Shown here: piece by piece, positions 1 through 35,800 of the stretch
Position numbering within the stretch: the first letter of the stretch is position 1
Layout of the letters: each line of letters opens with the position of its first letter
Notes under the pieces: model-generated
What the model saw: only the letters and a program-made list of their open reading frames with translations
Database searches by the model: none
Told to the model about the DNA's origin: nothing
Translations under genes and position numbers: made by a program
Source: Phoronis australis
Lineage: Eukaryota > Animalia > Phoronida
DNA length: 64,000 bases
Reading direction: 5' to 3'
Assembly (NCBI GenBank): GCA_002633005.1
Contig: NMRA01000028.1
Location: 542,183 to 606,182, forward strand

Positions 1-1817
1 AACTGTTGCCTCTGACTAGGTGCTTTCAAATGGTTTGCTATCGAATAGGGTTGCACATATGTTTTGTATACCATCTGAAATTGCAATTATTTCTCAGCCA
101 TTTTGTGTTGTGCTGACGGCAGCTGTGTGCATTGGTGTATAGTGCGTTTTAAGCTATGCTATCAAACTGTAACATTTTTATTTGATTTCCAGGGTTTTAT
201 GGGATTGAGAAAAATGTCAAGTTTCCCAGATTTTCTACAATAAAATTACGTCCCTTGGCAAAGTGTTTGTTTTATTCAGGTGGCAGTGAAATATTATGCA
301 GGTAGTCCTATCAATTTACCTTCATATGACCGACTAATGCAGACCAGAACGAAGGCGAAGTACTTTAGGGGGGAGAAAATAAGATTGCACCCTCCTCTGC
401 AAAACATCAGATTCCTTCCTATCGCCACAACTGTGCCCTCTCTTGTTTTCACCAAACTCGCCCACCACCCCCCTCCCTCCCGCCACGTGGGTGCGGATTT
501 TGCTGTTTGGAGGGGGAGGGGGTGTAAACCCCGTGTTTCAACAAAATTTCACGATAATAGATCACTTTTAGAACTGTACGTGCAATTTCTGTTCAATTTG
601 TTGTTCTAGTCGACTCTAAATTTTCACCTCCTTTGGGTGAACTTATGATAGGGACATGAATTCTGCAGGATTTTTGTGTGTAACGGAGGGTTCAAATACT
701 TTGGACCTGAGAGAAACTCGTAGGCTTAGTGTGTGCTGCGAAATACACAGAGAATTAGCGTATACAATGTTGTAGAAGGAATATCGATTGGGTGACTTCG
801 GTTATAACACATACTAGGCGTTGATGAAAGCGTGTGTTATCAAGCGAGAAGCAATTTTCCATACCAGTCCATTGGTACAATTATTCCGTGTTAAAGTCTA
901 TGCAGACTGACTAAGAATTACAATACATTAGCTACCTGCAGTGCACTAAACCCAGAGGTATTTATGGCCTTCACAACTTCCCACTACTCTGTGGTGGTGT
1001 TCTAAACAAATGCAAAATACTGAATAACCAAAAACGAAAGAAAACTGACCCAATATATCAATAGACGTTGAGTTACCCAATACTTTGATAACAATCGACA
1101 AATGATGTAAAAATACGACAAAAAACACATAAAAAGTACACAATGCATTGTGCAATACAACGCCGGAGTGCTCCGACATCTGCTGAGAACTAAGGAAGGT
1201 AAATTGCAATATGGTAAACAAAAATTCCTACGCCAACACAGAAAAACAATTTCCAATCTTACACTGTGCCGTTGTTGTCAAACTCTAAGTGAATAAACAG
1301 TTAACAATTAAAGCAGGTTATTGATCATGATTTTTTGATTAATTCAAAGAAAATTTACTTTAGATTTGAAAGATTTAACATAGCGTCTAAGTAAACGCCC
1401 TCGTTGAAATACTTTTGCATATCAAAAATCTGCATATAATAACTCATAGTTAGCATCATCGCCGAATAAGTTGTCAGTTGAAGTCACTGGTGTTGCGTCC
1501 ATGAAGTGTTTTATTGGGTCGCTGATGGTAGCGGAAATAAAACCCTCACATGATGAGAAATGCTATGAGACTGTCTTTATAAGAATAAAATGCCTAGTTC
1601 AGTTTTGGCGTTTTAGCTTGCTAGACGTTGAAATGCATCTTTAACATTAGAATTTAGACATAAGTTCCTCACATCACATGGAGCCTCCCTAAGAATCGTG
1701 TAATTTTCAAAGGATACCTGTGTTGCTACTATGCTGTATAATTAGGTACAAAACATCAGTGGCAGCTTTTATTTTAGAATAAAACACAACCCAGTGATTC
1801 AACGAGCTTAATAAATC

Positions 1818-1823
1818 TTTATT
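1818..1823 (-). terminator. Polyadenylation signal AATAAA of the prepropeptide gene
   Basis: tttatt on + strand, ~70 nt downstream of the TGA stop. Confidence 0.55.
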
Positions 1824-1891
1824 GAAATCGGAATTCTTGCAAACAAATTACATCCGCGTCCAGTAATTTTCCTCACTTTGATAACATTTCG

Positions 1892-4800
1892 TCATTGTCT
1901 GAAAAAAGATGAAAGTTTGTTGTAAGATCCAATAGTTGACATTACTGCAGCCCACATTGTCTCATCGTCATATGTAAATATGTAGACACGCGCTACGACG
2001 CAACATTCAGTTCAATTCGTTCATTTCTTAAAACATTTCGACCGCATTTGTAATATTCCTTACCAAGTCAGCTAAACGGGCAAGCGTGACATCCACTTTA
2101 ATCCACTCACCAAGAACTGTCATGACCATTCTGTGACGCAGTGAATATGTGTTTTAGTTGAATCTACTTTTATCGCTCAGTTGAGACGCCGATTTTAATT
2201 GCCAGTGATGAGACTTAAGATTGGATGAAATCATTAAACAAGAGTTTAGTTTTAAAGTCAGTTGTGCAAAACAAATATCAGCCAGACGTTAGTAAAAACA
2301 TCAAAATTACTAGTGAAAACACAAAAAACACAAATACTATCAAAGCGGCCTAGAACGTGAAAAACAGCCTAAATTGCAATATTCAAAGTAGTTTTCTCCA
2401 CTGAAACAAAAGTGAAACTGTTCACTAGGTATTTTTACGGTTTGTTCGTAGAGATGTCGAATTTCTGTTGATGTCAAATTTTCCTTTAGTTTCAAACTTC
2501 AAAAAAGAGAACGATCTGTCATATATACTATATCGAAATTGTGACCTTTGCTCTTTGAGGAGGACAAAACCATGGAGATTTCAAGCAGGAGCACGTCCGA
2601 CTTCTTTGACCCCGTGCGTGCATATTTATAATTGGGGGAGGAGAACTTGAAAACTGTATTGGGATGAAATAGTTTATATTTCGCCTGTGTTTCGAAAATA
2701 GTGAATCTGGCGATATTTCTAGAAACTCTTACTATATTTAAAGTGAATAACTCTCACGTTAGCATCTCCAAGAAATAGATTCCCCACGATCTGTATAAAA
2801 GATGTTTTTTAACGAATTAACAAATATATAAAAACAGTACCTCATACGCAGGACAAGAACTTGTACACAATTTGTTGTTTAAAGCGCTGTTAACAAACTC
2901 CGGTTTTTCGTATTTACGACTTTATGGCCAGTGCCAAAAGACTCTGATTTTCGTAAACAACTTGACAGCTACGAATTTTTAGCTTAAAAAGTTTAATCAT
3001 CAAGTCACCTGTTTACACGCTCCGATTGACTCTAAACAACAGTCGTCTTCGACTAATAAAAACGTGCAGACTAAGATACTGCAGTCCCAATTTTTCCAAG
3101 GAACGTTTTTAAAGAGATTGCTGGCCAGTCCCTGTGTTGTTTCTGATACGCGACTGAGTGAAATATTCTGAATATATTAGATGTTTCAGGCTATTAAAAA
3201 CACGATGTAATGACGTGGACTATGAATGTTTCCATTCACTATCGCGAAATAGAACCAAGTCTAAAAGAAATCTTGTGTCTTCGGTACACATCTAAATGTC
3301 AAGAAAATTAGGTACCAAAAAGATAACTTATTTTTAGTAGTTTACAATACATGAAATTCTGTTCGTCTCATTTGTTTCGCACATTTCTGAAATGCAGCGT
3401 TTCAATGAACGAAAACCCCGGTATACTATGTTTTTTAAGTTCATGCGCGGTGACCCTGGCACGGTACTTCAATGCCACTGGATAACGGCCTGTGTAGTGA
3501 CGCATTGTTTTGCGCACATTAACCAATCCAAGGCCACCATTATTCACATTGGTTTCGTCTTAGTAGACGGTACAGAATTAATTAAGTGAAACATAATTTA
3601 ACATTAACAAGCTAATAAAAGCAACCTCTTTTCCTGGTTCATGTCTTCCACTGTTAGTTGTTTCTGGAACTCTTCAGCATTGGACTCTGCACGCCGATCA
3701 ATTCTTGCACCCATTACATTTGCAGTAAAACCCTCCACTACACTGTAATACAAGTACCCAATATGGTCGAAAATTAGACAATCTGTTTAGTTTTGCTTAT
3801 AAAAATGTTCAACAAATATATATTACGAAAGTGCGTCAAGATTTCCTGATAAAGGTGTCTGTCACGTTTTCCCGTGAGGTGGATGGGCGCAGGTTGTTAC
3901 CGACCGGTGCTAATAGCTTTCGGTGCGACGATAGACTGAGGACAGGTTCGAGTTAATCACCTTATTAGCTTCGACAAGTCTACTCAAACAAAACGCCCGA
4001 CGTAATGTCAGTTCTAAGCTCCAGCCAGTGCTGGGAAGCCTTGACTTGCGATGAACTTCTGAGACACTTTCAGGTACTGTTATACTCATTGTTTCAATAA
4101 CCTGCTGTCTCTGTAGCTGGCTCTGTTTATTAATGCTGTAACTCCTGATTCTGTTTACTGCAACTCAACTATAACTTTCATCTCCAACTGTATCGAACTT
4201 ACTTGCCTTCAACTCTCTTGTAACTCTCCGCCACTAACCCATGTTTTGGCATTGATAGTATCTTAAAGTGTTCTGGAATATTTCATCAATTTAAGGACAT
4301 TCTAGAACTTTCCGGAATCTACCCAATCAATCTACAAACATACAATGCATACTAGGCTCTAGTGTGTTACAGACTAAATTAAGCACTAGCGTACTAGAAT
4401 CTTCTAGAATGTTCCTTGCCATTCTGTTCTAAACAACTTAGACAATCACTGTTCTGATCTCATGGGTCATGTTAATGAAGTGCAGTCTGCTAATGAACTA
4501 AGAAAGCAGTAACATAAAAATAAAACCTTTTTAACCAAGATCAGTATCAGTCCACTCCTGACAGTATCAAATGTTTTAGAAAATTCCATTAACTTTGACC
4601 AGAATTTTATAACAGCAAATTCCAGCATTGTGTTTCTGTAATTTCATTACAAATAGCTTATTCCCGATAAAGGCGTCGTTACTCCGTGAAATTAACTGAA
4701 ATCAAACATTTGGCCTATTAGTTTAAAACGCTTAAAATATCCGGTGGGCTCCCGCATTGCCTCAGTTATAGCTATTTGAGAAGAGTGTCGGACTACGGCC

Positions 4801-5490
4801 GCGGAGGTTGTGGTTTCGAGATCACTCATGACCAACCAAATAAGGCCCAGTGTCAGAGGATGACGTACTCGAATGGTATGATAAGTGATTGATTAAACAA
4901 TATGTTTCCAAGGTACGAGAGATGTTCCCTTTATCAGCCTATCAAGAAGTGGACGTAGGTTTTATTATTGTTAGAATTCTCACGTCGCAGTCGACAAACT
5001 CTCCACAGTTTAATAAAATCTTACCCACTCTACAGCAGTGTATTTTAAGTGAGGTTAACAAGTAAAGTCACCGGCCTTGATTTAAGCGACAATTGGCGAT
5101 TTGAAATGAAACCACAAAAATGAAACAGATTTAATTTTTTCATGGCTCTGATCAAAGCTAATTAACTACAAAACATCTGCTGTAGTACATACAGTAATGT
5201 CAAAATTGCGTTTTGGGCCGTAAAACGGATAAAGTTCCTTTAATGAACTATGTGCAAGTAAAAGATGAACTTTGGACCGTCTTAGACAACACGGGTCGTA
5301 GACCTCTAATAAAACAATCCCATAGATTTATAATTTGTATTTTAGATGGCAAGGAGGAAGGTGATGTCGTTTTAATTTTAAATATATTCTGCGATAATGA
5401 GTTCAATTACAATAATTATAGTAATACTTACTTTGTCGTAATCACAGAAGTAATAACCAACAAAGCGAAGAAAAATGCAGCAGTCTTCAT
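1892..5490 (-). CDS. Small secreted prepropeptide gene (60 aa, 3 coding exons): MKTAAFFFALLVITSVITTNVVEG-FTANVMGARID-RR-AESNAEEFQKQLTVEDMNQEKRQ
   Basis: Exons 5490-5432 (ATG, donor GTAAGT, phase 2), 3742-3626 (acceptor ttacag, donor GTTGCT, phase 2) and 1898-1892 (acceptor ttttttcag, TGA). Phases are consistent, there is a hydrophobic signal peptide, RR and KR dibasic sites, and AATAAA on the - strand at 1818-1823. Confidence 0.75.
3626..3742 (-). CDS. Prepropeptide coding exon 2 (VVEGFTANVMGARIDRRAESNAEEFQKQLTVEDMNQEK)
   Basis: 117-nt open exon with AG/GT borders, in phase with exons 1 and 3. Confidence 0.75.
3860..4563. mobile_element. Solo LTR (704 bp) in an intron of the prepropeptide gene
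   Basis: Termini TGTCA...TGACA; flanking 5-bp TSD GTGTC (3855-3859) / GTATC (4564-4568) with 1 mismatch; no internal ORF. Confidence 0.6.
4752..4835 (+). mobile_element. tRNA-derived SINE head (degenerate)
   Basis: A-box-like TGCCTCAGT, then AGAGTGTCGGACT and B-box-like GGTTTCGAG; no intact cloverleaf. Confidence 0.35.
5432..5490 (-). CDS. Prepropeptide coding exon 1 (signal peptide MKTAAFFFALLVITSVITT)
   Basis: Acceptor ttttctag 6 nt before the ATG (context gaagccATG); donor GTAAGT. Confidence 0.75.
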
Positions 5491-9929: not shown

Positions 9930-9975
9930 CCACAGATGACGCTGTCGTCAGTCACTTCCTCATTTGGTTCCGCTT
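9930..9975 (+). promoter_or_regulatory. Putative promoter of the BAR-domain gene
   Basis: CpG-richer stretch with TGACG/CGTCA half-CRE sites and an ETS-like CACTTCCT ~100 bp upstream of ATG 10060. Confidence 0.3.
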
Positions 9976-10059: not shown

Positions 10060-10240
10060 ATGGCAGATCACCGTAAGACAGCCGCAGCCAACAAGTTCTC
10101 ACTTGGACTTGTTTTACCTGGTTTAAAAAAGGCGGTTAAGAACTTGTCGACTGGAGGACACACCGAACTGGGCAACGTTTTGTTTGACCAGAAGGTTGTC
10201 ATACACAATCACAACAAAACTGTTTTGTCAAAACTTCAAG
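10060..10240 (+). CDS. BAR gene exon 1 (MADHRK...VLSKLQ)
   Basis: ATG at 10060, donor GTTTGT at 10241, phase 1. Confidence 0.8.
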
Positions 10241-13200
10241 GTTTGTAACTACTGACTGTCTAAGACTAAAACAAAGTGCTGTGAAACATTTCTGCAGTCT
10301 GTCTTTAAACTCTGTTGTAGCAGTGGCCTGAGATTTTCTGGGTTAACTAGATTGAGCTCTAATTTAAGTTATCAGTTAGGTTCGAGTTATGAAGACTTTC
10401 ATGGACCCTGATTTAGAGAATCAGGCAATCAATGAATAATGCCTGCTATTTAGTGGATGAAACTGGTTCTCTAAGTCAGGTTATTGTATTAAGACATGAA
10501 ATTGTCTCTTCTTAGCAATAGAGACTGTGGCCATCCCAGTAGGCCCTATGCCGGAAGTTTTTTGATGAACTATGATGTCTCAAACGATTAAACCATCAAA
10601 GTCACGTTGCTATTACTTTTTTGCGCATAGAAAGACACCTTGGCTTAGGAGGCCATCAATGTCTTTAATTCATTCCAACTCCAACAAATACTCTTGTAAT
10701 CAAACTTTCTTTTTTGTGAGCATTCCTTCATTCAGTTTCCTAAATCGGAAACTGGAATTTTTACACTGCTTGCACCAGGGTTACATGCCCTGGCACGAGC
10801 AGTGTGGTATGCGTCTCGGAATTTTGTGGGTTTCAACTTAGTTGGGCGCCAATGTTGATAAAGGCTGTAATATTATTGTGGTTTGTACTGGAACTACACT
10901 TACCTTATATGACACAATTCGTTAGAATGGTTTATTATGTAACTCTTGCCAAACTTGTGCATTGCAAAAACATGTTGTGCAGTAGTTAGTCAGTGTGCAA
11001 TAATGTAGTGTTCAAGTAAAGACGTCTTCTTCACTGACCTCTCTCCACACGACATTACATGGTGTCAGGAGTTGGCGATTTTTTGTTCAGTTGTTGCTTA
11101 GTGTTCTAAACAATGGCTGCTATAGCTAGACTTGAGCCTGCTGGAACCATTTGTACAGTTGGAGACTGACAAAACAGGAGAAAGTTGGAGTCAGTGGCGG
11201 CAGAGATTTGACATTAACCTGATCGCGAGCGGACTCGAGGATGCATCAGATAAACAGAAAGTTAACATTTTACTTCACCTCCTTGGAGCAGATGGTGTCA
11301 AATTGTTTAATGCATTTGATTTGTCACCATAAGACAGGTACTGACACGTTTTGACGAACAGTGGCCATAAGAAATACTGCAATATTCGCCAACAAGCATA
11401 TTTGGAACACAACCAGAAGGCCGGTGAGTCGCTATGGCTTTTGTAGCCGATCTACAGCATCGCGCAAAGGGATGTGACTATGGTGACAGAGTACACATTT
11501 GTGACAGAATTGTCAATGGTGTCCGCGACAGTCACATCAAGTTGAAACTTCTAGACTTTGAAGTAAATGACTACTCTTCGGAGAATGTCATTAAAATTTG
11601 TCGCGCAAGTGAACTGTCTTAACAGCACCTAAAAAACCTATCAGCGAAGGACAATGTTTGTCACACAAGGCACAAGATGTTGTGTAAAAAATGCATGAGA
11701 ATGCGTTAAGAGGACAACTGTCCTGCTAGAGGCAAAACATGTCACGTTTGTGGCAGTTTTGGCCATTTTGCGAACTCGAAAATTTGCAAAGTACAACAGA
11801 GATCGCTGCAACAGCAAAACCATTATCAACAACAGAGAAGAGAACAAGCTAGAGGGCGTCAAAGAGGAAATCGTGGTTGGAATCACTGAGGACACACAAA
11901 TGTTCACAGAACAGAAAAGGACGAAATGGCAAATATGATGGAACAATGCAGTATTGAGATGTGTTCGGGATAAATCCAAATTTTGCATATGTACAAATTC
12001 TGATGATTGGAATGTCACAGTCGGTAAGTCACGCTTATTCTTAGCAATTGATACGTTTGCAGATTGCAATGTACTGCCACTAGCTACAGTGAGGAAGTTA
12101 GGTAGGTAACACCTGTTGAAACAAAGCAATGTTATGATTATTCATGACAAATCATAGAAAGCGTATGGTAAAACTGTATTGCCAGCTGTTTATAATAATA
12201 AGACACATGCTAGAGTTTCTTGTACTGGACAACAGGAAACAAGTAGATTTGTTATGTCGTGATGACAGTATGAAATTAAATGTTGTCCAGAGAGTGTTTG
12301 AAGTTGACTCTCAGAAAAAAAAGCAAATCACAACTGTTTTGTAAGAAAATACAGTGATGTGTTTGAAGAAACAATTGAGTGTATTCCAGCGGAATGCAAT
12401 ATTCAGGTAGATTTGTCTATACCGCCAGTAGTAGTTCACACTCCCAGCTTAGTTCCCGCTGGTATCAGAGAGCAGATAAAAGTGGAATTAGACCATTTAG
12501 AAAGGTGTGGCATTATCGCGAAGGTCACTGAGCCAACACCTTGGATGTCTCCATTAGTATGTGTTCGGAAATGCAAGAATAGAGTCAGGTTGTGTATTGA
12601 TCCCTCTAGCTTAAATAAGGCTATTTTGTGTAAACACCATCCGATGAGTTCAATTGATGATATTGTAACCAGATAACATGGGAGTAAAATTTTCAGTGTA
12701 CTTGATGAAAACATGGTTTACTACCAAATCAGGCTTTGTGACCAAAGTTCTTACTATACAGCATTTAATACCCCATTTGGGCGATACAGACATCTTAGGT
12801 TGCCAGTGGGCTTGAAAAGTTCCCCAGAAATTTATCAAAGGGCTATGCAAAGTATGTTTGGTCACATTTCGGGAGTGAAAGTTGTGATGGAAGATATTCT
12901 AATTCATGGCAAAACACCTCAAGAGCATGAACGGCTCACAGCTGTACTTGAGATAGCCAGAAAACAAGGGCTAAAATTGAATCTAAATTTAAGACTAAGA
13001 TTAGTCAATCCCAAATTTGTTAGTGGGGGCGGCGCACCATAGGGGGCTGGGGGGGGGCTATAGCCCCCACTTTTTTTAGTGCTATGCCGAACATGGTCTC
13101 TAGGCGGTGAACCACGGGTTGCTGAGGGGGCTTTAGCCCTCCCCCACTTTTTTCAGTGCTGCTCCACCCATGTACGGGGTCATGTTTTGACTGCTGATGG

Positions 13201-16200
13201 TGTAAAACCATCCCAAGAGAGAATTCAGGCTATTGTTAATATGCCAGAACCAATCAATGAACAAGAACTGCAGTCAGCGTTGGGAATGATCGCATATGTG
13301 TCCAAATTTATCCCAAACTTTAGTCAGTTGAGTGCTCCATTACGACAAATGAAAAATTCAGGCTCTTGGAAGTCAGGCGAGGTAGAATCGAAAGCTTTTT
13401 CAAGTATCAAGAAAGCTTTGTGTAACTCCCCTGTATTAATATACTTAGATATCAACAAACCAATTATACACTAAGTGTTGATGCTACCACCAAGGTTTGT
13501 AAGGTTGATATTCTAGCAAATTGTATGCATGATGAAATTGCTATGGAAACATGCGATGATGTGGTGTATTGCAAAAACATGTTGTTGTACAGTAGTTAGT
13601 CAGTCCGCAATAAAGTAGTGTTCAAGTAAAGACGTCTTCTTCTCTCCTCTCTCCACAAGACATTACGAACGCATTCAGATACTTTTCTTGGTCCTGTCGG
13701 GAATCAAACCACTTACTTCCTACAACAAATTCTAGCATCCAGATTGATTGGCTAAAGAGCAATTACCTAATGTACTGGAAGATTTAGAGTTTTCTCTTAA
13801 TATTGAGGGTATGGCACAACTGGAAGTCATGTTATAATAAACCACTCTTGGTCTGTATTTCATACTTTTACATTACTGTGAAGTGAGTTAAGAAGTAATT
13901 GGGACCTAGATTATTGCTCAAGGGAAAGTATTCAAGTACATGCACTGATATAGTCAGAGAAGTTAACATTTTTTGGTTTTGTGACATATTTCCGGTGTCG
14001 GTGCCAATCAAAATAGTCTGCCTTGGATGTCGCTCAATCAGTAAAGCCAAAAGCATTAGCTTACATGGCAGATAAATCTAATATACCACAGCAGGTAAAG
14101 CGCACAATGACATTGTCGGATATCCCATATTTTGCATGCTGTTGAGAAATTTGAAGAAATGCATTTCAACAGGGGAACAAGTCCTGCGTTAATATTACAT
14201 TTTAGAGTGACTCTCCGTAGGGGAATAAATGGGTTCTGCTGTGAGTTGATTACTGTTTGTATTTATGAAAAGGGCTTGAACTTCACTGGTCGTACTTTCT
14301 AGATAAGAAAGAAATTGAAAATTGTGAACAATTTTTGGTGGTCGTAAATATAGGGTGGTCACTATCTGAAGTGATTACTATTCAAGTAACTGAATTTGTT
14401 TAGCCTACTCGAAATGAACAACAAAAAACAGAGGGTTTCAGTTACTTCTAAGGCACTCGTCCTTGTACACTATTGGCAAATTGGTCATGCCCACTTGCAA
14501 ATGATGTCATGATGTATGATGAATCTGTATACTGCACAGATTGTGTAGCGTGCAGAACAGTGAGCCAAACTCTCAGTCCACAGGAGGTGCTGATGTACAC
14601 ATAGTGCATTGGGTATGGTTTTCACTTCAGTCCTGACTAATAAACCAGTCCACTAGATTTCAGATTGGTAAGCTCATTTGTAAACTGAAGCCAAAAATGA
14701 ATGATTCGAATGAAACAACTCGTGAAAGTTGAGAGTGGGTTGAAGTTTTAGTTTTATATTGTGTAACAGAAGTGCTGTACTGACAATAAGAGCCTGTATT
14801 AGATTGCAACCAAAGTAATTGGACTAATTAACAATGAGTTAATCGACTTCACTCTGAGCATCTGGCTCCTGTTAGTTTCCTGGAATTCGGCTATTCAAAA
14901 TTTGTTCAAACTTTTTTTTCATGCTGTGTATTGAGTGCTTGGGTAAAATTTATTACTCTACCGTTATGATACTGAATTGTTAAAAGAGTTACAGTTTTCT
15001 AAATTATCACTTCATTTGTTTTAAATGCCTTCTGAGTTTTTTGTAAAAATCTTAAAAGTCCTTATTTTTTGTTACTCCTCTTGCTATAGTTGAACCTCCT
15101 AGTAACAATTCCTAACCCCGATTTAGGGAACATTACATAAAGCGTGCCATAATATCTGAAGGTATTCATATAACTCTAATCAATAGGTTTTTTACTGAGA
15201 TAGTCAGCCAAATTTAGACATTTTTCTAGGTTGCTATGCAAGATTAGTAATATCAGGAAGGTATATCTCTTCCTGGTAATAAATATTCAAGATGAAGGTA
15301 AGCCATTGTGCAGTTGTTGAATTAAGTGTACTTCAAGTAATGAACATGGATATGACTGTTTGGCTTGCATATTTCAGATGCTGATAACTTGTTGAAATGG
15401 TCTCAGAATGATGATAACATAGAATTGCGCTCATTATTTTTTAAATTTGCTGAACTGGAACAGTTGTCAGCTCAGGTACATCAACAATACACTGTGCAGG
15501 TGAGTCAATACCCTCACTGTAACCATATGTTCATATTTGTACTTATGATAATAGCAATAACATTAAAACAACAGTTCATTTCAACAAACATCGCAAGCAT
15601 GATGCCCAATAACTAGGATATAGCATTCTTCTTCAAGCAAGGAATTCCTTCAGTTTTGCTTTGTATAAAAAGTTATCAGCATGGCACTAATATTGTGATT
15701 GCCGATACCAACAGAAAATAAATAATAAATCAATTAGTTATTTTCTGTTAGTTGCGTTTCAATAATTCTCCATATTTACCTCTCATACCTTCATTTTGAC
15801 CGCTGCTATGATAATGCAATTTAAATTCTTTTTAAATCTTTTCATGAAGCAGGTTACCTTAATGCCAAGTTGCATTTGGCGACCTGCCAAAAATCTGGGT
15901 TCGCTAAATCTGAAAAACCCAGGTCATCCAGTATGGCAGTAGTTTATTATCTCCAAATCCTATATTCCTCTAATCAATATCTCAGTCAGAAACATCAGAT
16001 CAAGTTAGTCAGATCCATACCTAACCTTAATCTGAGTCATCAAGCTGTGGCATGCTGGTTGATGAACTCCAGATCTTCGACTTCACCGTGGGGTGCTTCT
16101 CTGTGTTTTGACTTGGACAAGTGTAATGTTTTCCCAAATCAACAGTTTTCAGTGTTGCCACATTAGATTCTCAATTCAGTGTCACTGCATTTGTGGTGAT

Positions 16201-19200
16201 ACGTTATTGAAGTTTCAAAGGTTCTTACTACTAACTAAGGAACATGATGAAACATTTGTAACAGTTTCTTTTCCAAAATTTCTAAATAATAGGACTTGTG
16301 TCAAGGGGGAGTATCATAGGCAGTTGACAAACCTTTAGTGTCATAAAATTGCTAAATAATAGGGCTTGTGTCATGGGGGAATATCGTAGGCACTTGACAA
16401 ACCTTTAGTGTCATTTTTAAAAGTTTAGCTGTATAATATGTGATGTTTTTGTTTTAGCTCGATTCATATCGCAAGACATACAAACAGGTTCTTAAGGTCG
16501 AACGTACTTTAGATGAACTCAGCAAGGTGTGTGAGTCGAACAGAGTTAAGGTTGACAAACTGTCCAAGGTTCACAGCCAGACAAAGAAACCATCTGAACA
16601 TCAGTTGCAAGAGATAGACAAGGTATTGTCTTGTTCACTAGTTGCAGCGTTCTCTCAAAACCTCTTTTTCAATTTCCAAAGGCTTCCAACACTGTTGAAA
16701 ATGCCCACAATTTTTCAAAACGTTGACTGGTGGTAGCTATGGTACAGAGTTTGAACATGGAACAGTGTTGATTTGGTGTTACATGTACCTTTTATGAAAA
16801 AATGTGAAAATGAAAATCTCAATTATCTGACATATTGTGTCCTAAATTGGTGATATTTACCATATTAGGTAAGCAGCATGATAACTTTATATGGAAACCA
16901 TTTTCATTTCTTAGCATCCATAATTTTTCGCAAACCTCGCATGCAGTTTTTCTCAAACCATGCATACAGTTTGTGAATTTCAAATCTCTTGTTTTTTGCA
17001 GTGAATTATGTAGTATGCAATCAGCTTAATTCACAAAAGTGAGTCAGTGAAATATTCAGTCATTGTTTGGGGGACCCCATATGCATACTAGTATCATCCT
17101 GAGTGATCAGAAAATTGAGCCTTTGGGCACTAATTCACTAAGTACTCGCTGAAACTCGTATTATCTGACCTTTCACTCGCTTTTAGCACCAAAGAACATG
17201 GTTCTTTGAGCATTGGCTTAATTTTCTAGATAAAGTCATCCATTCATTAATGGCTGGTCATGTATACACATTCACAACTAGTTTTTGAATTAAGATAATG
17301 AATTAAAAGATATTGTTGTAATCCTGGTTTATACTAAATGAAGTGCAGTGCAAGGAATGCTATTCCAAGCAACATTGGTAGAGCACAACATTTTTATAGC
17401 TGTTCAAACGGAGCCTTTTTTACTTGATCAACATTGCTTGGAATACCACTTTTTGAAGTGATATTCCTTTAGACATGATTGTGTTTTTGTTTACAGTCAT
17501 ATCTACACTTGTTGTGTGTTACGGTCAATAGGTTACGAAATGATAAGTAAAACAGTAAAACTGATGTAACATGGATCCAATCTGATTGAGAGCTTTCATC
17601 TCCGTAAGGTTAAATTGGGTTTATCTGAAGGGCTGTGGGCACGAATTAGAAGAATTATATATGAATGTAAAACTTATGCGGCAAGGAAATTGCAAACATT
17701 TTTAAGTTTGGTGAGCATGCCATCTATTGGCCATATAGGTCACGTGATGTGGCTAACAGATGGCGTGCCAACCAGACTTAAAAATCTTTTGGAATATTTA
17801 GTCTGTGTTTAGGAAGAGTCAGGCTTGTGGGAGTTACACTGCAGTTATTTGAAGTTTTGATTTATTACTTAAGAAATGATTGAAATTCATGGTTCAAATA
17901 AGATGTTTTAATTCCATGTATATTAATAAAAGTCTTGTTGTTTGGTAGGCCCTCTCAACATCTGAAGATTCAGTGGCTGCCTTGGCTGTGAAAACAGAAC
18001 AGGTGTCTATATTCAAGGTATTACCTACCATTGGTGTGACGTTCTTCCACAAATTAGAACAAAAATTATTTACAAAATTACCCTTTTTCATTTTTCAAAA
18101 GCTCACTACATGTGTTAAAAATGCTCAGAATTTCACCAGCTTTAAATTGGAATATACCACTCAGGTTGGATATATTAGACATTTGTGTACTATATGAGAA
18201 TAACCTTCATCACATGAACAAGATAGAGCTATGATAACTGAATGAGTGAGTACCCTTCACCATGTAACTTGTGGATATATCTGTACATGTAAATTTATAT
18301 GCATGTGTTTGTGCGTACAATGTATCCCTATATGTATTTTATGTACATCTACGCTATGAAGTTATCAGACATTGTTTTTCTTCAAAAGGTAAAGTGCTCT
18401 AACTAGGCTGATATTGCTTATATTGTTAGCATGCTAAAGTGCGCTGCGCTGTCCTAAACTTACTGGAGGCTGAACAAGCGCTGCACGAGAAAAGTCTGGA
18501 TATTATCAGCGCCAAGAAGCGACTACTCAGTACTCTTCTACCCAAAGATATTCCCAGGAAGGCAAACATCGACGCAAAAGGTGATGGTGACATTGCTGGT
18601 CATATGTATGCAGCATAAATCTTGTAGCTTCTGAAGCTTTGTTCTGTATTATTTGATGATGCAAACAAAATATGCAATTTGCTTGATGCATCTCCTATGT
18701 TCACCTTGTATGTATTCTGTGGACTGTGTTTCTCGACAGTCGACAATCTCAAGTTTTTCTCTGCTACGCAGTGACGCATCACTTGTGTCCCTTCTTGTTA
18801 ATGTCTAAAAATTCAGTGGGTTGGTGTTAATCCAACTACAACTGAACGCACACATTTAGAGGAGAATTGGTTGAAAATGCAGATGCTGGCGTTTAGCCAA
18901 ACGTGACTATTAAGCCAATGGATGTAGTATCTGGGGGTTCTAGTGAAATGTGAGCCAAGTCTTTCCTCTTTCATTCCACATAAATATTATGTGAAAATTA
19001 TTTAATTAGACTTCAGCAAAGTACAAAAGTCTCTGTCATATAACTGCAGGGATCGGATATTTTTGTAGAAATTATTTCTGAACTGTGTTGTGCTTACAAT
19101 TTCATGAAAAAAATTATGTTAAAATCTCACCAATTGCGAGTAAAAACTTTTGCCAGAATTATGTTTTTTTTTTTTAAGGGCTTCTAACATTGTTGTGAGT

Positions 19201-22200
19201 TCCCAGTTTTTCGAAATATTTCCTCGTGGTACAAAACCTTGACATGGTTAGGTATCTTAAAAGTTGCTGCTACGTATGTTTCATGAAAAAAATATGATTT
19301 CACGTGTCTGTCATATTTTGTCCTAAATTTGTGAGATTTTATCGTATTTAGTATGAGCACAAGACAAAATTTGTGACATTTTAGTCACACCCAAGTACTG
19401 AGTTGAGCCAAAACTGAAATTTCTAAGAAAGACTGCACCTAAAACAAATATATGGTAAAAATTCTCCAGTTAGGGCATGGAAAATTTACTGATTTTGCTC
19501 AAAGTTTGTATCATGAGAAATACGTAGGCAATATTATCCGTCCCGTAAATTCAAGAACTGTGATAAGAAAAGTTTAGTGTTGGCAGCTATTTTTTGACAA
19601 TTTTATTTCAGACTTTGCTGATACAGAATACAGTGTCTAATATTTGAGAAATATGATGAATACCATAATTGACACTGTCCCAATCCTCAGAATCAAGAAA
19701 ACAAGTTCAAATTTGGCTTGAATTTCAGTGTCCCAAATTTTAGAGACTGTCCCAAATTGGAGAATTTTTACCTTAAGTAACGGTTTCTGTGCGTAGTACA
19801 TTGGTCAATATCCACACCACTGACTCACTGTGGTTATAGAATGTATGTCAGACTAGCTTTTTTATGGTGCAATGCTTGTCATTTGCTTATCAAGTATTTG
19901 TGTGAAAATTTTCTTATCTGCAAAGCCCGGCTTTACCTCTTCTGTAACTTATGTGCAAGATGTTGAATCTCATAACTAGCATATTCTGAACTCTCAGCAA
20001 ATGGCTTACTAACAGAATGATTGCGCTATTTGAATTCATTTAAATTATTTGTTGTTGCTCTGTGTTTCACCTCACACGTGCACGTTTGCCGTTGATAGCA
20101 TGTTGTGTTGTTTGTTGTCTGCAGAGCTAGTTGAGTGCGGTAAGCTAGTATCCGATGTGGCTGCATCGTTGAACCTGTCTAGACCGATCATAACTGACCC
20201 TGCCACGCCCTCACCCACACATGAGGTTAGTAAAACCACTTCCTTGTATATCTAGTGTGCAGTTTACAAATATTCATAACACCAGTAGTTCCCCTGTTGC
20301 TGCATTAAAACAGTACCTTAGCGAGCCGATTTCTTTTTATTTAATACACCATGTTTCAATTTTTGCAGTATGATGTCTGTTTAACTGTGACATTCATAGT
20401 AACATTCAAAGTTACAATTAGAGTGTCCATATATGTAATATTAAGTCTCTCATGTGATGTTTCACATTTTCACATTCCAGGCTCAGCTATTCAGCTATCC
20501 ATTGGGGGTAACCGAACAATTATCTTCTCAGACAGGACCATAAACCTTTTGCTAAGGTGTCCAACTGGGACAGTTGTATGACTAAGAGCAGGGTTTACAA
20601 AAAGCTGCTTTTACTTTCCTTGCGTATGAAGGACACCCTCAACATTCAAAGCCTCTATGCGGATTGATTACCCCTCCAAGCCCAAAATGAGATTGTGAAA
20701 TGTAACTTCTCTGTTGAGTATTTTATGCCTTTTATTTCATTTCAGAACTCAGGATTCTTGAAAGGCTTCCTTCGAAACAATTGGAAAAATCAAAACAAGA
20801 AAAAAGTTAAGAAGCATGATGAGGTGTTTAATAAGCAGGCTGCCCTCAAAATCTTGTCAGACTGGCCCCCTGTGAAGACTACAGGTAAGGCATTGTTTTC
20901 TGTTGAAAATGATGACTACTTTTCCACTGCCCTCTGTTGGTGATTAGTAACTACACCATTCGTCTCAGTGATTGCCAATTGTGTCAGCAGGTGGTCCAAA
21001 GCTTTTAACTGACAATTGCACTCCAGTCTACTTTGTATGTAGCTAAGTGACAATTAAAGTTCTGAGTTTTATCATTACTTTGAGATGGTAATTGAAATTA
21101 TTTTATTTGGACAAATTCTGAAGTTACATTTTATACTCAACAGTTTTCCATATTGTCTGCATACCTTCATATTGACAGTTGCTTTGGCGACACGGTTTCA
21201 ATTCCTTTTAAAAGTAACGCAGATATCATTGTGATTTCCATGACGGGGATCTTCTTGTTAGCAAGCCATCAGCATGTAATCGAACTCAAAAATCTTTAAT
21301 GCCTTCTTATGTCATCCAGATTTTGATGTTACATTTGCTTTTAAGTTACTGTAAAATATAAATCCCTGCATGAATGCAAACCTGAATCAAAGCATTGCAG
21401 TTCCCACCAGCATGCTATTCTAAAAAAGGTGGATTTTCAAATGCTAAAATGTTCACAAGTTGTTTATGAAAACTTTGAACAGCATGTTCACACTGAGCAT
21501 ACGGACATACAGTTTACAGTTGCATCGATGTTATTAAATCACATTTATTAATTGTTTTGCATTAACGACTTTTGTATGACCCCAAAATATGACATGTTTC
21601 CTAAAATATAATTGATAACTCTTTAGTCGCTTCTGAGCATCTGGAATTTTTTCAAAATCTCTCCACAGTGATATGGGTAAAAAACTGTTAGCTGAGTGAC
21701 CAAGTGAGTGATCAACATACGATTGAAAGCCCTAGCATTGTCTCCTTTGGCTTCACCTCGGTCATTGTCACATTTTTGGGGTCTGACAACCAACATATTG
21801 ACCTTGGTGAAAGTCAGGAGATGTATATAGTCATGAAATTGTTCAAGTAAATGCCTCTATTGATTGAACACATCGTTAAGAAAATGCTGATTTATCTAGT
21901 GTGCTTGTAGTGTGTCTGTAATACCATGTTTCTTGCTTTTGTTCCTTGGATAAGTTTACTGAGCGTTGAGACAAAATCCCAGTAAAGACTGGTCTTCAGA
22001 TGAGTTTTTATGTAGTGCCCATTGTTTGTCATAAATGTTTGTCTGTATGACCATCAGAGAGGCTTATATATCAGAATGGTGTATTGAAAAATACAAGTAA
22101 TTTATATTCTTTGATGTTTTCCGTTTTCTTTTGCTGTGTAGTTGAATGTCATATCGCAGTTATAGTGATATTGTGTGATATCATACCTCAGGTGCTGAGA

Positions 22201-22986
22201 GTGATGATAATGACGAACATGATTATACCGAGCCCTTCAGCCACCTCAAGCCTACACCCCTACCTCGGTCAGCTGTGTGTAAGTCTGTGAGTGCAGTGGC
22301 TGGTCGTTCAGCCCCCAAGCCACTTCCAAGACCTGCCAGGTCACTGGGTGACCTCACTGAGACTAAGCATTATGATGATGCCAGAGTTAAGAGATCAACA
22401 CAGTCAGTGTGTATCAGTGAAGAGGTTTATCAAGCTAATGACTACTTGGATGTCTTGCCTCAAGAGGTCAACGATGATGAAGGTAAGGACATACTTGTGT
22501 GGATTCAATGATTTGTGAATTAATGTTCACTGATATTTAACAAGTCTCAACATATGCATTCCGTAACTTTTGAGATTTTTTGAAAATTTCTGAATAACAG
22601 TCAGAATGGTGTATCCACAGAAGCCAGGTCATCCGTTCTGGAGTAAGCTAGTTTTAATTCATGCCCATCGGAATTTTCCCCGGACTTTATCCAGTTGAAT
22701 CCAATTTTTGGAAATTTTACTGTATTTGGCCAAAATGCACAGAAATAGTAACTGTGAGATCAGCTCAACATTTAGTTTGTTAAAGATGTGCTTCCATGAC
22801 ATGTTGTTCAACAAAACAGATTCAACAAGGTAATGATGTATGTGTGGAGTAGCTGCATGACTAATGGTTGTTTCAGACTCCAGCAGCGAAGATGATGAAG
22901 AGTACATGCATCTCTTTGACATTATTCCACCCAAGAATCACAACGACACGTATGCAACACCTACAGGAGTTACAAATAATGTTTAA
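10060..22986 (+). CDS. Pil1/Lsp1-like (eisosome-type) BAR-domain protein with a Tyr/Pro-motif tail, 442 aa, 9 exons
   Basis: Exons 10060-10240, 15378-15499, 16458-16622, 17949-18017, 18430-18580, 20125-20225, 20746-20884, 22192-22482, 22877-22986. All introns are GT-AG, phases 1,0,0,0,1,0,1,1 join into 1329 nt with a single stop. Motifs QKVVI...DADNLLKW, LDSYRKTYKQVLKVERTL, KVRCAV...HEKSLDI...KRLLSTL and KLVSDVAASLN parallel recalled Pil1 EKNVL...DAAKQLSIW, YDQYRLTLKSIRDIEGSV, KLRAAF...HSEKIALI...KALLELL and KQIIIDAESALN. Confidence 0.85.
10401..10480. mobile_element. Truncated copy of the palindromic MITE at 30362-30477, opposite orientation
   Basis: atggaccctgatttagagaa...ctggttctctaagtcagg. 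Confidence 0.65.
11113..13490 (+). pseudogene. Disrupted gag-pol (Gag, Zn knuckle, protease, RT, start of RNase H)
   Basis: Fragments in ORFs 11132, 11434, 12359, 12713 and 13079 with many stops and frameshifts; catalytic xxDD decayed to MEDI. Confidence 0.88.
13024..13172. mobile_element. GC-rich MITE (CATGGGCG...CGCCCATG family) inserted into the Gypsy RT
   Basis: Interrupts RT between PKFV and GHVLT; homologous to 33548-33696 and 29022-29445. Confidence 0.75.
15378..15499 (+). CDS. BAR gene exon 2 (DADNLLKWSQ...QQYTVQ)
   Basis: Acceptor atttcag, donor GTGAGT. Confidence 0.85.
16292..16414. repeat. ~70-bp direct tandem duplication
   Basis: ctaaataatagg..ttgtgtca.gggga.tatc.taggca.ttgacaaacctttagtgtcat present twice. 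Confidence 0.7.
16458..16622 (+). CDS. BAR gene exon 3 (LDSYRKTYK...QEIDK)
   Basis: Acceptor tttttgttttag, donor GTATTG. Confidence 0.85.
17949..18017 (+). CDS. BAR gene exon 4 (ALSTSEDSVAALAVKTEQVSIFK)
   Basis: Acceptor ttgtttggtag, donor GTATTA, phase 0/0; restores the BAR helix register. Confidence 0.75.
18430..18580 (+). CDS. BAR gene exon 5 (HAKVRCAVL...NIDAK)
   Basis: Acceptor tattgttag, donor GTGATG. Confidence 0.8.
19453..19773. mobile_element. ~320-bp MITE
   Basis: TIR GGTAAAAATTCTCCA / TGGAGAATTTTTACC, flanked by TA. Confidence 0.55.
20125..20225 (+). CDS. BAR gene exon 6 (ELVECGKLVSDVAASLN...PTHE)
   Basis: Acceptor tgtctgcag, donor GTTAGT. Confidence 0.8.
20746..20884 (+). CDS. 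BAR gene exon 7 (NSGFLKGFLRNNWK...PPVKTT)
   Basis: Acceptor tttcatttcag, donor GTAAGG. Confidence 0.8.
22192..22482 (+). CDS. BAR gene exon 8 (Tyr/PxPxPR motif tail)
   Basis: Acceptor acctcag, donor GTAAGG, 291 nt open. Confidence 0.8.
22877..22986 (+). CDS. BAR gene terminal exon (DSSSEDDEEYMHLF...TYATPTGVTNNV*)
   Basis: Acceptor tgtttcag, TAA at 22984-22986. Confidence 0.8.
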
Positions 22987-23607: not shown

Positions 23608-24340
23608 TTTTACCGAGTGATTTATAAGTGGTCCGTCAATTTTCTCTGAGCGTCCGGTGTCCGCAGCTGTATCTCCTAAATCCCTTACAGGATCTTGATG
23701 AGATTTGGCAGACGTGTTCCTATGAAGCTGATGACAACAAATTTCGAATCTCTCCGACTACAGATGTGCCCCCTAGTGGCAATTTTAGATTTTTACCCTT
23801 ACCTCTTTATCTTCGGAAGTCCTCAATGGATTTTCATAAAATTTGGCAGGTATGCATATATTAGTGAGATGACGCTATCCTCTCGTTTTTGGATGGATTC
23901 AATGTGTTTTGCACCTCTTAGTGGCCATTTTTACTGTTTTCGAGTCTGTTTTTTGGCGTCCGCCCTTCTATCAATCAAACTGTTCTGGAGTTGATTTTGA
24001 AAAATGGCATATATGTTCTTATTGTGAAGGGGGTGGCTGACAATGATTTTCCAATGACTTTGACTACTGTGGCGCATCCTAGTGGCAGTTTTTTTTTGCG
24101 CCCACAGCTGTATCTCCTAAACACTCTGCAGGATGTTTAATTAAATTTAGCAAATGTATTTATATGAAGATGACAACGGACGACGATGACTTTCAGACAT
24201 ATCTGACAAACGCTGTACCCCCTAGTGGCAATTTCATTTTTTTCCTTTTTCCTTAGTTTGTTTGAAGTTCCTTGGCAGATTTTTATGAAATTTAAAATAG
24301 CTTTCTATTAAAAAATGATGTCATGTTCCCGTTTTCACAA
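23608..24340 (+). mobile_element. Helentron/DINE-1-like non-autonomous element with ~150-bp internal tandem units
   Basis: T-rich start and gtccgtc-like motif; repeated units of gctgtatctcctaaa...gat.tt.atgaaatttggca and cc.ctagtggc; related fragment at ~40420-40690. Confidence 0.55.
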
Positions 24341-32800: not shown

Positions 32801-35800
32801 TACTGTTTAATCCATTAAACATGCACAAAAGCGCAATTCACAGTGGTGCTCCCTTTTTTTTATTAGTTCGCCCGGCTTTTTTGTTACCAAAAGGTCCTCA
32901 AAGTCAGGAATTCGAGCCCCCCCATATTGAAGGCTGGGTGCGCGCATGATTTGTATGCGTATTTCAACACTTCAAATTTTACTCATTTTCTGTAATTGCT
33001 GCGCAATGACTTTAGTTGTTGTCTGTTCCATTTTGGACAATCAGTATGAAATGTTGAAGTACACATCCAAAACACACAAATCAACTTTTGATTTTAGAAC
33101 ACTCACTGTTATAAAATTTGTCTCAACTTGATCCGTACTCAGGCGAGAAGTGAATTCCTGGTTTGCAAAGAGCTGACACTTCATTATTGCCTGAGTGCAT
33201 GCCTGCCAAATAACATGTCACGTTGTTATAAACCAACTTGTAGAACCTGATCTGGAGCATTAGCAAGATAAGCACTCTTTTGAAGCTCTGAAGTCTCCTC
33301 TAGTTTAAGTATGAACGAATAATTAATGACCAATTTCTTCATGGTAAATGGTTTTAATAAAAAATTGTGACGGAAGAAACATTTATTGCTGCTTTAGTAA
33401 GTTACAGTTTGACTTTGTCATTGGTTAGGAGCAGAAGCAACATGGGCAACATCACATATATGACTGGTTGTTGTTGGACACACAATGTGGGCAACACTAT
33501 GTACATGGCTGGTTGTTGTTGGACACACAACGTGGGCAACACTATGTCATGGGCGGCTCACCATAGGGGGCAGGGGGGGCTATAGCCCCAGTTTTTCAGT
33601 GCTACGCTGCCCATGGTCTATAGGCAGTGCACCACAGGGGGGCTGGCTGGCTTTAGCCCCCCACCCCCCAGTTTTTTCAGTGCTGCGTTGCCCATGTATG
33701 TACATGGCTGTATGTCAGTCACTCAGTAGTTACATCAGCAATGAGACGAGAGTGTGTGTTAATGTAGCTACAGTCAGGGTCATACACATTAAACATTTGC
33801 TCTAATCTCTTAATCATATTAGCAATACCATCTTCTCTCGATCTGAAGCCATGTGTCTCCTATCTGAAGCCATGCAGCCGCACCATTACTGGGGAACAGG
33901 GCGCCTACCAAAAGGAAACCTTTTCAACTCACCTTGTCGAAGTTACAAGGAATGTTTTTAGATAGCTTTGCTTTGATGCTCTTTCTGTAAACTTGTATTA
34001 TTCCACTTGTTAAATTTTGCTAGTTCAACAAATGCAGACATAAAGCAAATTTGTAAATTTTGTGTTTTTGTCATTTCAGACATCTGAAGCAATGCCTTAT
34101 AAAGATAATGCAAGAGTGTCTTCAAGACTAAGAGTACAAAGCAAAGATAAAAAGGGAAATGGAACTAAGAAAAAGAATATATTGGGGATAGAGAGAGACT
34201 CTGCTTCTATCACAGTCACTGAGAAACCATCATGTGAGGCTGCTGTGGGCAAGATGCTTGTAGATAAAGTATTGTCCAGTAGTAGCATGGAGTCCAGTAG
34301 AAGAAGGGTACTAATTAAGCCAAATAGATTCAATGTTACGTTGGGTGAGAGTGAAGACAAGGGAAAGAAAAGGGAAAAGGTCTCTGTTGGTGTCCTTAGA
34401 CATAGGAAATGTAAGGATGGATTAGAACTACCTATGGAGGAATCAAAGCATGGGAACTGTGGTGTTAAACAGCCTACCAATAACAAAGCACGGAAGAATG
34501 CAGGTATTAGTGAGATGAAGGCTGAGAAAAGCATGATGACTGGCCTTGGAAAACGAGGGGGGGAAGACACCGTGAATGGTTCTACAGGTAAACGAGCAAA
34601 ATTAGACAGGACCTCTTTTGGCAAGGATGGACAAAGAAAAGGCAATCATGTTGGCAAGACAGGAAAAGAGAACGTAAAAAGTCACAGGTCCTCAGTTTGT
34701 AAAAACAGCAGAGTTCAGGAACCACGTGATGCCATCAAGGCAGAGACGCTGGCTATGAAGAGAACAACTAGGCAACAACTGAAATCAAGACAAACCATTA
34801 ACAGTTCCACGGCAGTGTACATCAGTGAGCCGAGAAATAAGTCTGCAACTGCAAAACAATTTTTTTCGTGCAATGAAACAAAGTGCACTGCAATATCAGA
34901 AAAGGGACGTGGCACAAGAAATCAGTCTGCCAAATCGGGCCTGCCAGATACTCACAGATCTACTAGGTGGTCTACAGTTTCTGTTGCAAGTGACAAGACC
35001 ACATCTAGAACAAGGCTGGCTGGTAGGCACTACCAAAGCACTTCTGCATTCAGCACTATTAAACCAGTCACGAGTCAGTCACAGATAGCGCCTGTGGTGG
35101 CAAGCAGTGACAACGTCCCTGCCTCTGCCCAGTCTAGCTCCAGGTTAAATGTGAGGTGGTTACCAGCCAGTGATCGTCAGCTGCGCAGTCGTAAGCCAGT
35201 CACCATAAAGCGGTCGGCCTACCCATCTACCACAGATGCCATTCGTAAGAAGTACAGGCGGCAATCCTTAGGTAGTACTTGCACTAAGCCCAACCTGATT
35301 ACCAAATCGGCCAGTGGGATTTCAACAACTGATTCAGTAAATACCTTGCAGACAAATTCATGTGTTGCCAAAATGGATACTTGCCTTGATAAATCTGCCA
35401 GTGTTTGCACAGTGGAGGCTGTTTATGTTGATAAGAGGGCTATGTACAAAAAGGATCCTATTCTTGCCTGCCTCTTATCAGACACTAATGGTGTACCCAA
35501 CGATTCTGATCCTCACAACGGCTTAGGTGGAGAATTAGTGTTGGCAGATTCAAATGCTGATTGTTTTGTGAAGGGTCGAAGGGGGCAGACTGGTGACAGA
35601 AGCTCACAAATTAACACGCCAATTGTCATGGCTTTGGAGGGTCAGTCTGAACATGATTCTGAAGCAACCAACAACAGCAGTAGCAGCAGCAAACACGATG
35701 AGTTATGTATCGGCTGTGAACTACAGCCAGCTACTGTAGAGCAGTGCTGCCACAATTCAGAGGGCAAGGAGCTGCTTACGAGTACAGAACATAATACACC

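Follow-up and report, generated by a model that had tools for sequence, protein, structure and literature searches.

A transcribed nine-exon gene of Phoronis australis encodes a likely BAR protein that probably belongs to the Pil1 branch

The 64,000-nucleotide stretch of Phoronis australis DNA analysed here (the window; contig NMRA01000028.1, positions 542,183 to 606,182 of the forward strand) contains a nine-exon gene at 10060–22986 on the + strand, and its spliced exons form a single stop-free frame of 442 amino acids. Our data indicate that this transcribed animal gene encodes a likely BAR protein, which probably falls in the Pil1 branch and ends in an adaptor-type tail. An N-terminal BAR domain is predicted with high confidence, and sequence comparison favours membership of the branch of the fungal proteins Pil1 and Lsp1, to which we assign a probability of roughly 0.6. 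The family signal in the alignments is split by helix, with helices 1 and 2 appearing Pil1-like and helix 3 FAM92-like.

The original prediction proposed an eisosome-type gene of six exons, and all six (10060–10240, 15378–15499, 16458–16622, 17949–18017, 18430–18580 and 20125–20225) are present, have GT–AG ends and splice in phase. The gene extends past 20225, with three further exons at 20746–20884, 22192–22482 and 22877–22986. Splicing was examined with raw RNA reads from three runs (X1, X2 and X3) of one study with the same species label, about 18–19% of each run being read. Reads span all eight introns, every one of which is GT..AG. The counts in X1/X2/X3 were 0/0/9 for intron 1, where the joint is supported by X3 alone, 7/0/7 for intron 2, 10/2/5 for intron 3, 4/6/10 for intron 4, 2/6/6 for intron 5, 6/5/6 for intron 6, 3/5/3 for intron 7 and 2/0/25 for intron 8; exon read depth was low in all three runs. 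The joint-spanning reads all have a minus-strand first mate, the pattern that common stranded libraries give for RNA from the + strand. Downstream of a stop at 9937, the first ATG in frame serves as the start codon.

Two reference sets were used for comparison. For Pil1, a short primer retrieved 118 fungal loci, and only the 20 long open frames among them were aligned. PF13805 was found in 5 of 5 members tested, the Pil1 and Lsp1 chains were matched, and the residue numbering of one locus, L078, agrees 1:1 with that of yeast Pil1. The rival set came from PF06730 searches of Asgard genomes (8/43 and 22/301), which yielded 23 intact FAM92-like proteins, of which 21 have a single domain. The Asgard profile recovers human CIBAR1 at 66.5–70.7 bits (E 1e-18), and CIBAR1 lies on it without gaps across the long helix 2 and the Pro-Leu kink region. 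Further decoys were 14 weaker PF09325/PF03114 matches, which are putative BARs only; L255 and L264 were omitted for internal stops, and L270 and L274 as duplicates. Gapped profile scoring used 19 fungal Pil1-type rows and 21 Asgard FAM92-like rows with 300 shuffles each, and the tree sampled 13 of the 19, 12 of the 21 and 6 of the 14 other matches. A PF13805 search found nothing in 43 Asgard genomes or in 14 controls and is uninformative. A 7–8 residue deletion in helix 2 sets the Pil1 set apart from the FAM92-like proteins and is usable as a family marker; CIBAR1 is the best non-Pil1 PDB match of the Pil1 core profile.

The claim of a BAR domain was borne out by whole-domain matches to these two independently built profiles. 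Residues 1–263 gave z 6.8 on the Pil1-type and on the FAM92-like profile, with 0 of 300 shuffles in each case, and the region matching both covers about residues 35–215. The match to Pil1 is collinear over helices 1–3 (profile positions 15–178 of 184), and that to the FAM92-like profile over helices 2–3. Residues 75–141 and 147–215 are free of Pro and Gly, and single-exon models predict helix breaks at residues 30–33 and 143–147. The exon 1 model, made from a single sequence, has helices at 7–29 and 34–59 with a mean predicted local distance difference test score (pLDDT) of 73. The exon 3 model has helices at exon residues 2–41 and 47–54 with a pLDDT of 92; a fold search with it returned generic helices (best Z 5.4) and was uninformative. 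The fold of the whole domain is inferred, as are the dimer, lipid binding, partners and Pil1-branch descent discussed below. Exons 6–9 of the spliced frame gave no Pfam match to PX, PH, SH3 or RhoGAP, and the RNA-defined frame leaves no room for such a domain upstream; the protein is therefore by layout not an orthologue of SNX-BAR, APPL, endophilin, amphiphysin or SH3BP1.

Affinity to Pil1 is supported in helices 1 and 2. The Pil1 segments quoted in the original prediction agree with the actual Pil1 chain, and the resemblance it described in these helices exceeds that of shuffled sequences (0, 0 and 1 of 3000). Residues 37–120 lie on Pil1 58–141 for 84 residues without a gap when the one-residue-longer fungal type serves as the reference, with a score of 48.7 against −4.4 for the next register. 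In this block 8 of 34 highly conserved columns are identical, and 37 other BAR-like decoys score at most 21.8. For residues 30–125 the z-score is 5.6 on the Pil1 profile and 0.4 on the FAM92-like profile. The Pil1 residues kept in register are L58, K66, A83, L86, W89, K103, D123, Y125, R126, T128, K130, E136, E211 and K212. Between the Trp at the end of helix 1 and the Tyr of Y-R-x-T-x-K, the P. australis protein has a spacing of 37; the value is 36–37 in 19 of 19 Pil1 rows, but 44 in 19 of 21 FAM92-like rows, the other two being unparsed. We take a spacing of 36–37 without a proline kink as a short helix 2, a criterion defined from the present alignments and not from a paper. The FAM92-like rows carry a proline before the conserved Leu of helix 2, whereas the P. 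australis protein has Gln. In reciprocal control alignments a gap of 7–8 residues was needed in 5 of 6 cases, and the P. australis protein needs none on Pil1. Since Pil1 itself needs 7–8 gap positions on the FAM92-like profile, the protein has the indel state of Pil1.

The lipid-contacting residues are kept in part. PMC11324527 assigns binding of phosphatidylinositol 4,5-bisphosphate (PI(4,5)P2) to R126, K130 and R133 of Pil1, and binding of phosphatidylserine to K66 and R70. Two of the three PI(4,5)P2 pocket residues are retained (R106 and K110), with L113 at the R133 position and K114 adjacent to it, and at the phosphatidylserine site K45 is kept at K66 with H49 at R70. Ahead of the BAR domain, the predicted helix at residues 7–29 has a hydrophobic moment of 0.62 at residues 19–29, compared with 0.47 in L078. 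Its sequence match to the amphipathic helix of Pil1 (39–48, with sterol-binding aromatics) is at chance level (815 of 1000 shuffles).

In overall layout the protein is like S. cerevisiae Pil1/Lsp1 (PF13805; PDB 3PLT, 8QB7 and 8QB8) in having a stand-alone N-terminal BAR domain with a predicted amphipathic helix ahead of it and a short first half of helix 2. Unlike Pil1/Lsp1, it has a tip 5 residues longer, lacks the yeast-type Pro-rich N-terminal extension, and bears PxxxPR and tyrosine motifs in a 190-residue tail; identity is about 19–27%. With CIBAR1/FAM92A (PF06730; PDB 8CEG and 9UHD) and the Asgard FAM92-like proteins it shares a classical BAR layout, E-x3-H-x-K-x-L-[DE] in helix 3 and P-S-[DE] at the tip, but those proteins have a helix 2 that is 7–8 residues longer with a proline kink.

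Several results weigh against placement in the Pil1 branch, among them those from helix 3. The Pil1 match claimed there was weaker than stated (143 of 3000 shuffles; 28 and 86 of 1000) and is marginal, although register offset 12 is the best for helix 3 on the Pil1 profile. Residues 150–225 have a z-score of 4.7 on the FAM92-like profile and 0.3 on Pil1, and helix 3 scores 42.3 on the FAM92-like fit against at most 29.9 for 20 Pil1 rows. Of the Dikarya Pil1 helix-3 motif (172–187), 3 of 15 invariant columns are kept, this invariance being partly a selection effect because the motif doubled as the fetch primer. With the fungal motif lost, we class the protein as Pil1-like, outside the fungal family in the strict sense. 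The claimed last-helix match did not rise above chance (644 of 1000 shuffles); a candidate C-terminal helix at residues 231–248 stands at the distance of Pil1 244–262, and its score is likewise at chance level. At the lipid sites, the change of R133 to Leu and of R70 to His also counts against the Pil1 assignment, and no intron position is exactly common with Dikarya PIL1 genes in the intron comparison.

The overall scores are low. The Pil1 core profile (HMMER, 20 fungal rows) gives 13.7 bits for residues 1–263 and 7.0 bits for the full protein, and human CIBAR1 reaches 15.5 bits; CIBAR1 covers only positions 62–150 of that profile and the P. australis protein 15–178. The PF13805 family cut-off is 27 bits, and Pfam, applied to single exons only, gave no match. 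HMMER scores overall were 7.7–13.8 bits, none of them significant at database level, and the hhalign probability was 4.6% to Pil1 and 3.6% to FAM92-like proteins. Once gaps are allowed, the protein leads the decoys only narrowly within helices 1 and 2 (49.5 against 46.4), and the lead disappears in the two sub-profiles, where 2 of 37 and 13 of 37 decoys reach its score. The helix 1–2 HMMER profile gives 13.8 for the protein and 13.6 for an Asgard FAM92-like protein, and unrelated chains from the PDB score as high as 14.5. The gap-free block was picked post hoc, after inspection of the alignment, and the Pil1 profile consists of only 20 closely related fungal rows. The best tree pairs the protein with Pil1, with a weak support of 79/61 on long branches, and its grouping with FAM92-like proteins instead also passes the approximately unbiased test (p-AU 0.27).

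The most serious alternative is that the protein is a fast-evolving FAM92/CIBAR offshoot whose helix 2 became two turns shorter, with a CIBAR-like role at ciliary or organelle membranes and a likeness to Pil1 that arose by convergence among basic BAR faces. The tree test and helix 3 speak for it: residues 170–209 are gap-free on the FAM92-like profile with z 4.6–4.7 and include E-x3-H-x-K-x-L-D at 194–203, a motif that CIBAR1 also has. The whole-domain z-score of 7.1 against 5.6 for Pil1 points the same way, as does the arrangement of a BAR domain plus an acidic tail, which we take to be that of CIBAR. Orthology with CIBAR was ruled out, since CIBAR1 scores 66–71 bits on the FAM92-like profile and the P. 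australis protein 7.7, and the same gap counts against descent from that family. Exons 1, 2, 3 and 5 match neither PF06730 nor the CIBAR1 chains; helices 1 and 2 are near zero on the FAM92-like profile and lack the proline before the conserved Leu; and identities are 11/88 to CIBAR1 against 22/88 to the Pil1 consensus, counted by eye in an alignment centred on Pil1. We consider this origin unlikely. The affinity to Pil1 put forward originally is supported for helices 1 and 2 (short helix 2, the Trp, and the K66, R126 and K130 positions) and not for helix 3, which FAM92/CIBAR-type sequences fit better; by whole-domain scores the protein stands about equally near Pil1 and FAM92-like proteins. 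Of the outcomes named at the outset as refuting the Pil1 reading, a FAM92/CIBAR orthologue is excluded, but a lack of specific Pil1 affinity keeps some probability.

These near-equal scores would also fit a separate classical BAR family about equidistant from Pil1 and FAM92 and acting as a tyrosine-phosphorylated membrane adaptor, which seems slightly less probable still. In the tree the end branch of the protein is 2.69 and the path lengths to the Pil1 and FAM92 groups are nearly equal at 4.72–4.79, and the tail is unlike the fungal Pil1 tails in the fungal alignment. Homologue searches gave 48 candidates for exon 1, 5 for exon 3 and 239 for stacked exons 2 and 5, none at E ≤ 10; an ESM Atlas query with exon 1 gave no usable match, and single exons found no BAR match in Pfam or PDB. 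In simulation the power of such searches was low below about 50% identity, so the blanks indicate neither absence nor novelty, and a 50-residue piece of a distant FAM92-like protein was likewise missed, so that single-exon blanks exclude close orthologues only. Against a separate family, chance would hardly produce a short helix 2 together with W68, Y105, R106, T108, K110 and E116, all in the same gap-free register. If the protein does belong with Pil1, the short helix 2 and Y-R-x-T-x-K would be derived traits common to it and fungal Pil1; its helix 3, being FAM92-like, would represent an ancestral trait lost in Dikarya Pil1. As a lead only, the ESM Atlas contains a cluster of 176 proteins, unnamed and mostly from arthropods, that resembles fungal Pil1 at 0.85 (170/256 features).

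It is improbable that the protein is a generic coiled coil whose long helices score on any helical profile and not a BAR protein. Every score lies under database significance, and coiled coils attain similar bits on the helix 1–2 profile, but collinear matches to two separate BAR profiles and predicted helix breaks where expected argue otherwise, and 191 decoy frames from archaeal loci score no higher than 21.8 on the gap-free block. Fungal contamination or recent fungal transfer has nothing in its favour besides the likeness to Pil1 and can be practically dismissed in view of introns of 394–5137 nucleotides, a retroelement in intron 1, repeat-rich flanks, splicing in RNA of the same species label, and the low identity to fungal Pil1, whose own members are 43–92% identical to the first row. 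The layout of the gene matches an animal contig rather than a fungal one, in agreement with the non-fungal gene structure proposed at the outset.

BAR adaptors with SH3-ligand and phosphotyrosine tails combine a membrane-binding BAR domain with a disordered tail of docking motifs, a combination also predicted for the 442-residue protein. Beyond a basic patch at residues 266–286, Pro, Gly and acidic residues abound in the tail, which has no real Pfam match. It contains two PxPLPR motifs and six tyrosines, 5 of which have D or E at −1 or −2; PxxxPR occurred twice in 19 of 20000 shuffles and the tyrosine pattern in 482 of 20000, both counts having been chosen after the sequence was viewed. An acidic residue just before Tyr is typical of tyrosine-kinase docking sites. 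The tail has neither a PPxY nor a P(T/S)AP motif. PxxxPR is a ligand type of CIN85 SH3 domains according to PMC2833206. From the tail sequence, a role as an adaptor in signalling or endocytosis seems likelier than that of a plain eisosome scaffold.

In the most probable mechanism, the BAR domain would dimerise into a crescent, and the dimer would bind acidic plasma-membrane lipids such as PI(4,5)P2 via K45, R106, K107, K110 and K114. The basic amphipathic helix at residues 19–29, and perhaps also the patch at 266–286, would insert into the membrane, and the protein would thereby sense or hold curved membrane. With its two PxxxPR motifs the tail would recruit CIN85/CD2AP-type SH3 adaptors, and with its tyrosines, once phosphorylated, SH2 proteins. 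A bolder possibility, which we regard as doubtful, is that animals retain a branch of the eisosome scaffold in which Pil1-type lattices on PI(4,5)P2 membrane hold furrows or tubes, the tail linking this scaffold, which would be sensitive to tension, with signalling through tyrosine kinases and CIN85/CD2AP. As to a static eisosome-like lattice, caution is needed, since R133 and the fungal helix-3 motif have both been lost.

In the literature, most significant matches of Pil1/Lsp1 are confined to fungi (PMC3128537), animals are described as having no direct orthologues of Pil1 or LSP-1 (PMC10010689), and eisosome-type furrows are assigned to walled organisms (PMC5753163). The available parts of PMC12470953, PMC13312728, PMC3257569, PMC6723945 and PMC11481674 contain nothing on animal members, and no paper on an animal Pil1-like protein was found in a literature search of titles and abstract starts, with most subscription papers outside its scope. 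If the placement is correct, a transcribed animal Pil1-like gene would push the origin of the scaffold back to the opisthokont ancestor or earlier and provide a named candidate for unexplained plasma-membrane folds in invertebrates. If the retained scaffold were real, a membrane domain derived from eisosomes would exist in invertebrates in the absence of a cell wall. The mixture of Pil1 and FAM92 traits in the protein would also help to position Pil1 within BAR evolution. Should the protein merely represent a new BAR family, it would still be an undescribed membrane adaptor, of narrower general interest.

The features of the protein are distributed over the nine + strand exons as follows. Exon 1 (residues 1–60; RNA reads, alignment and single-exon model) encodes the predicted N-terminal helix with its basic amphipathic face, a Gly break and the start of BAR helix 1, including K45 as placed by the alignment. 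Exon 2 (residues 61–101) contains the end of helix 1 with W68, which corresponds to Pil1 W89, a loop and the first half of helix 2. Exon 3 (residues 102–156) encodes the D-x-Y-R-x-T-x-K motif, in which R106, K110 and L113 were assigned by alignment, the remainder of helix 2, the break at 143–147 with P146, and the start of helix 3. The first half of helix 3, where the fungal motif is lost, lies in exon 4 (residues 157–179), and the second half, with the FAM92/CIBAR-type motif, in exon 5 (residues 180–229). Exon 6 (residues 230–263) encodes a short likely helix spaced like the last helix of Pil1, though not significantly similar to it, and then a Pro/Thr/Ser linker. Exon 7 (residues 264–310) carries the basic and aromatic patch, with a net charge of +8 over residues 266–286, as a candidate second membrane anchor. 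Exon 8 (residues 310–407) encodes a likely disordered tail with the two PxPLPR motifs (at residues 330 and 351) and Y321, Y370, Y389 and Y394, and the coding part of exon 9 (residues 407–442 and the stop) an acidic run with Y416 and Y432. Run X3 shows 25 reads across the exon 8–9 joint but 3 across that of exons 7–8, and depth is about 15, up from 3–4. This excess at 22192–22986 may reflect a shorter transcript beginning in or upstream of exon 8; exon 8 contains no in-frame Met, and the excess is not seen in X1 or X2.

Introns 1, 2 and 4 lie within 1–2 codons of Dikarya PIL1 introns (82 phase 1 and 83 phase 0; 121 phase 0 and 120 phase 1; 191 and 190, phase 0), near-coincidences that were not counted as evidence. 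Intron 1 (10241–15377, + strand, 5137 nucleotides by RNA reads) contains a decayed long terminal repeat (LTR) retroelement at about 10860–13670, identified by domain matches. It lies on the gene's own strand and comprises a zinc knuckle, a reverse transcriptase (RVT_1, E 2.4e-14) and pieces of RNase H, interrupted by stops. A 100-nucleotide direct repeat (10957–11058 and 13564–13666) is identical at 94 of 100 positions, and a short high-copy repeat lies inside the element at about 13027–13170. Downstream of the gene, a repeat at 23620–24330 with two similar copies has 210–280-fold stranded RNA coverage at 90% likeness, which indicates a strongly transcribed repeat family. An 819-codon open frame at 34044–36503 (+), basic in its first half and acidic and Ser-rich in its second, has no Pfam match and is probably one large exon of an adjacent gene. 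Among the Asgard sequences, L271, L273, L275, L277 and L278 form a helical family of about 410 residues with weak PF03114 matches (1 of 5 above the cut-off); these putative BARs are distinct from the 215-residue FAM92-like set.

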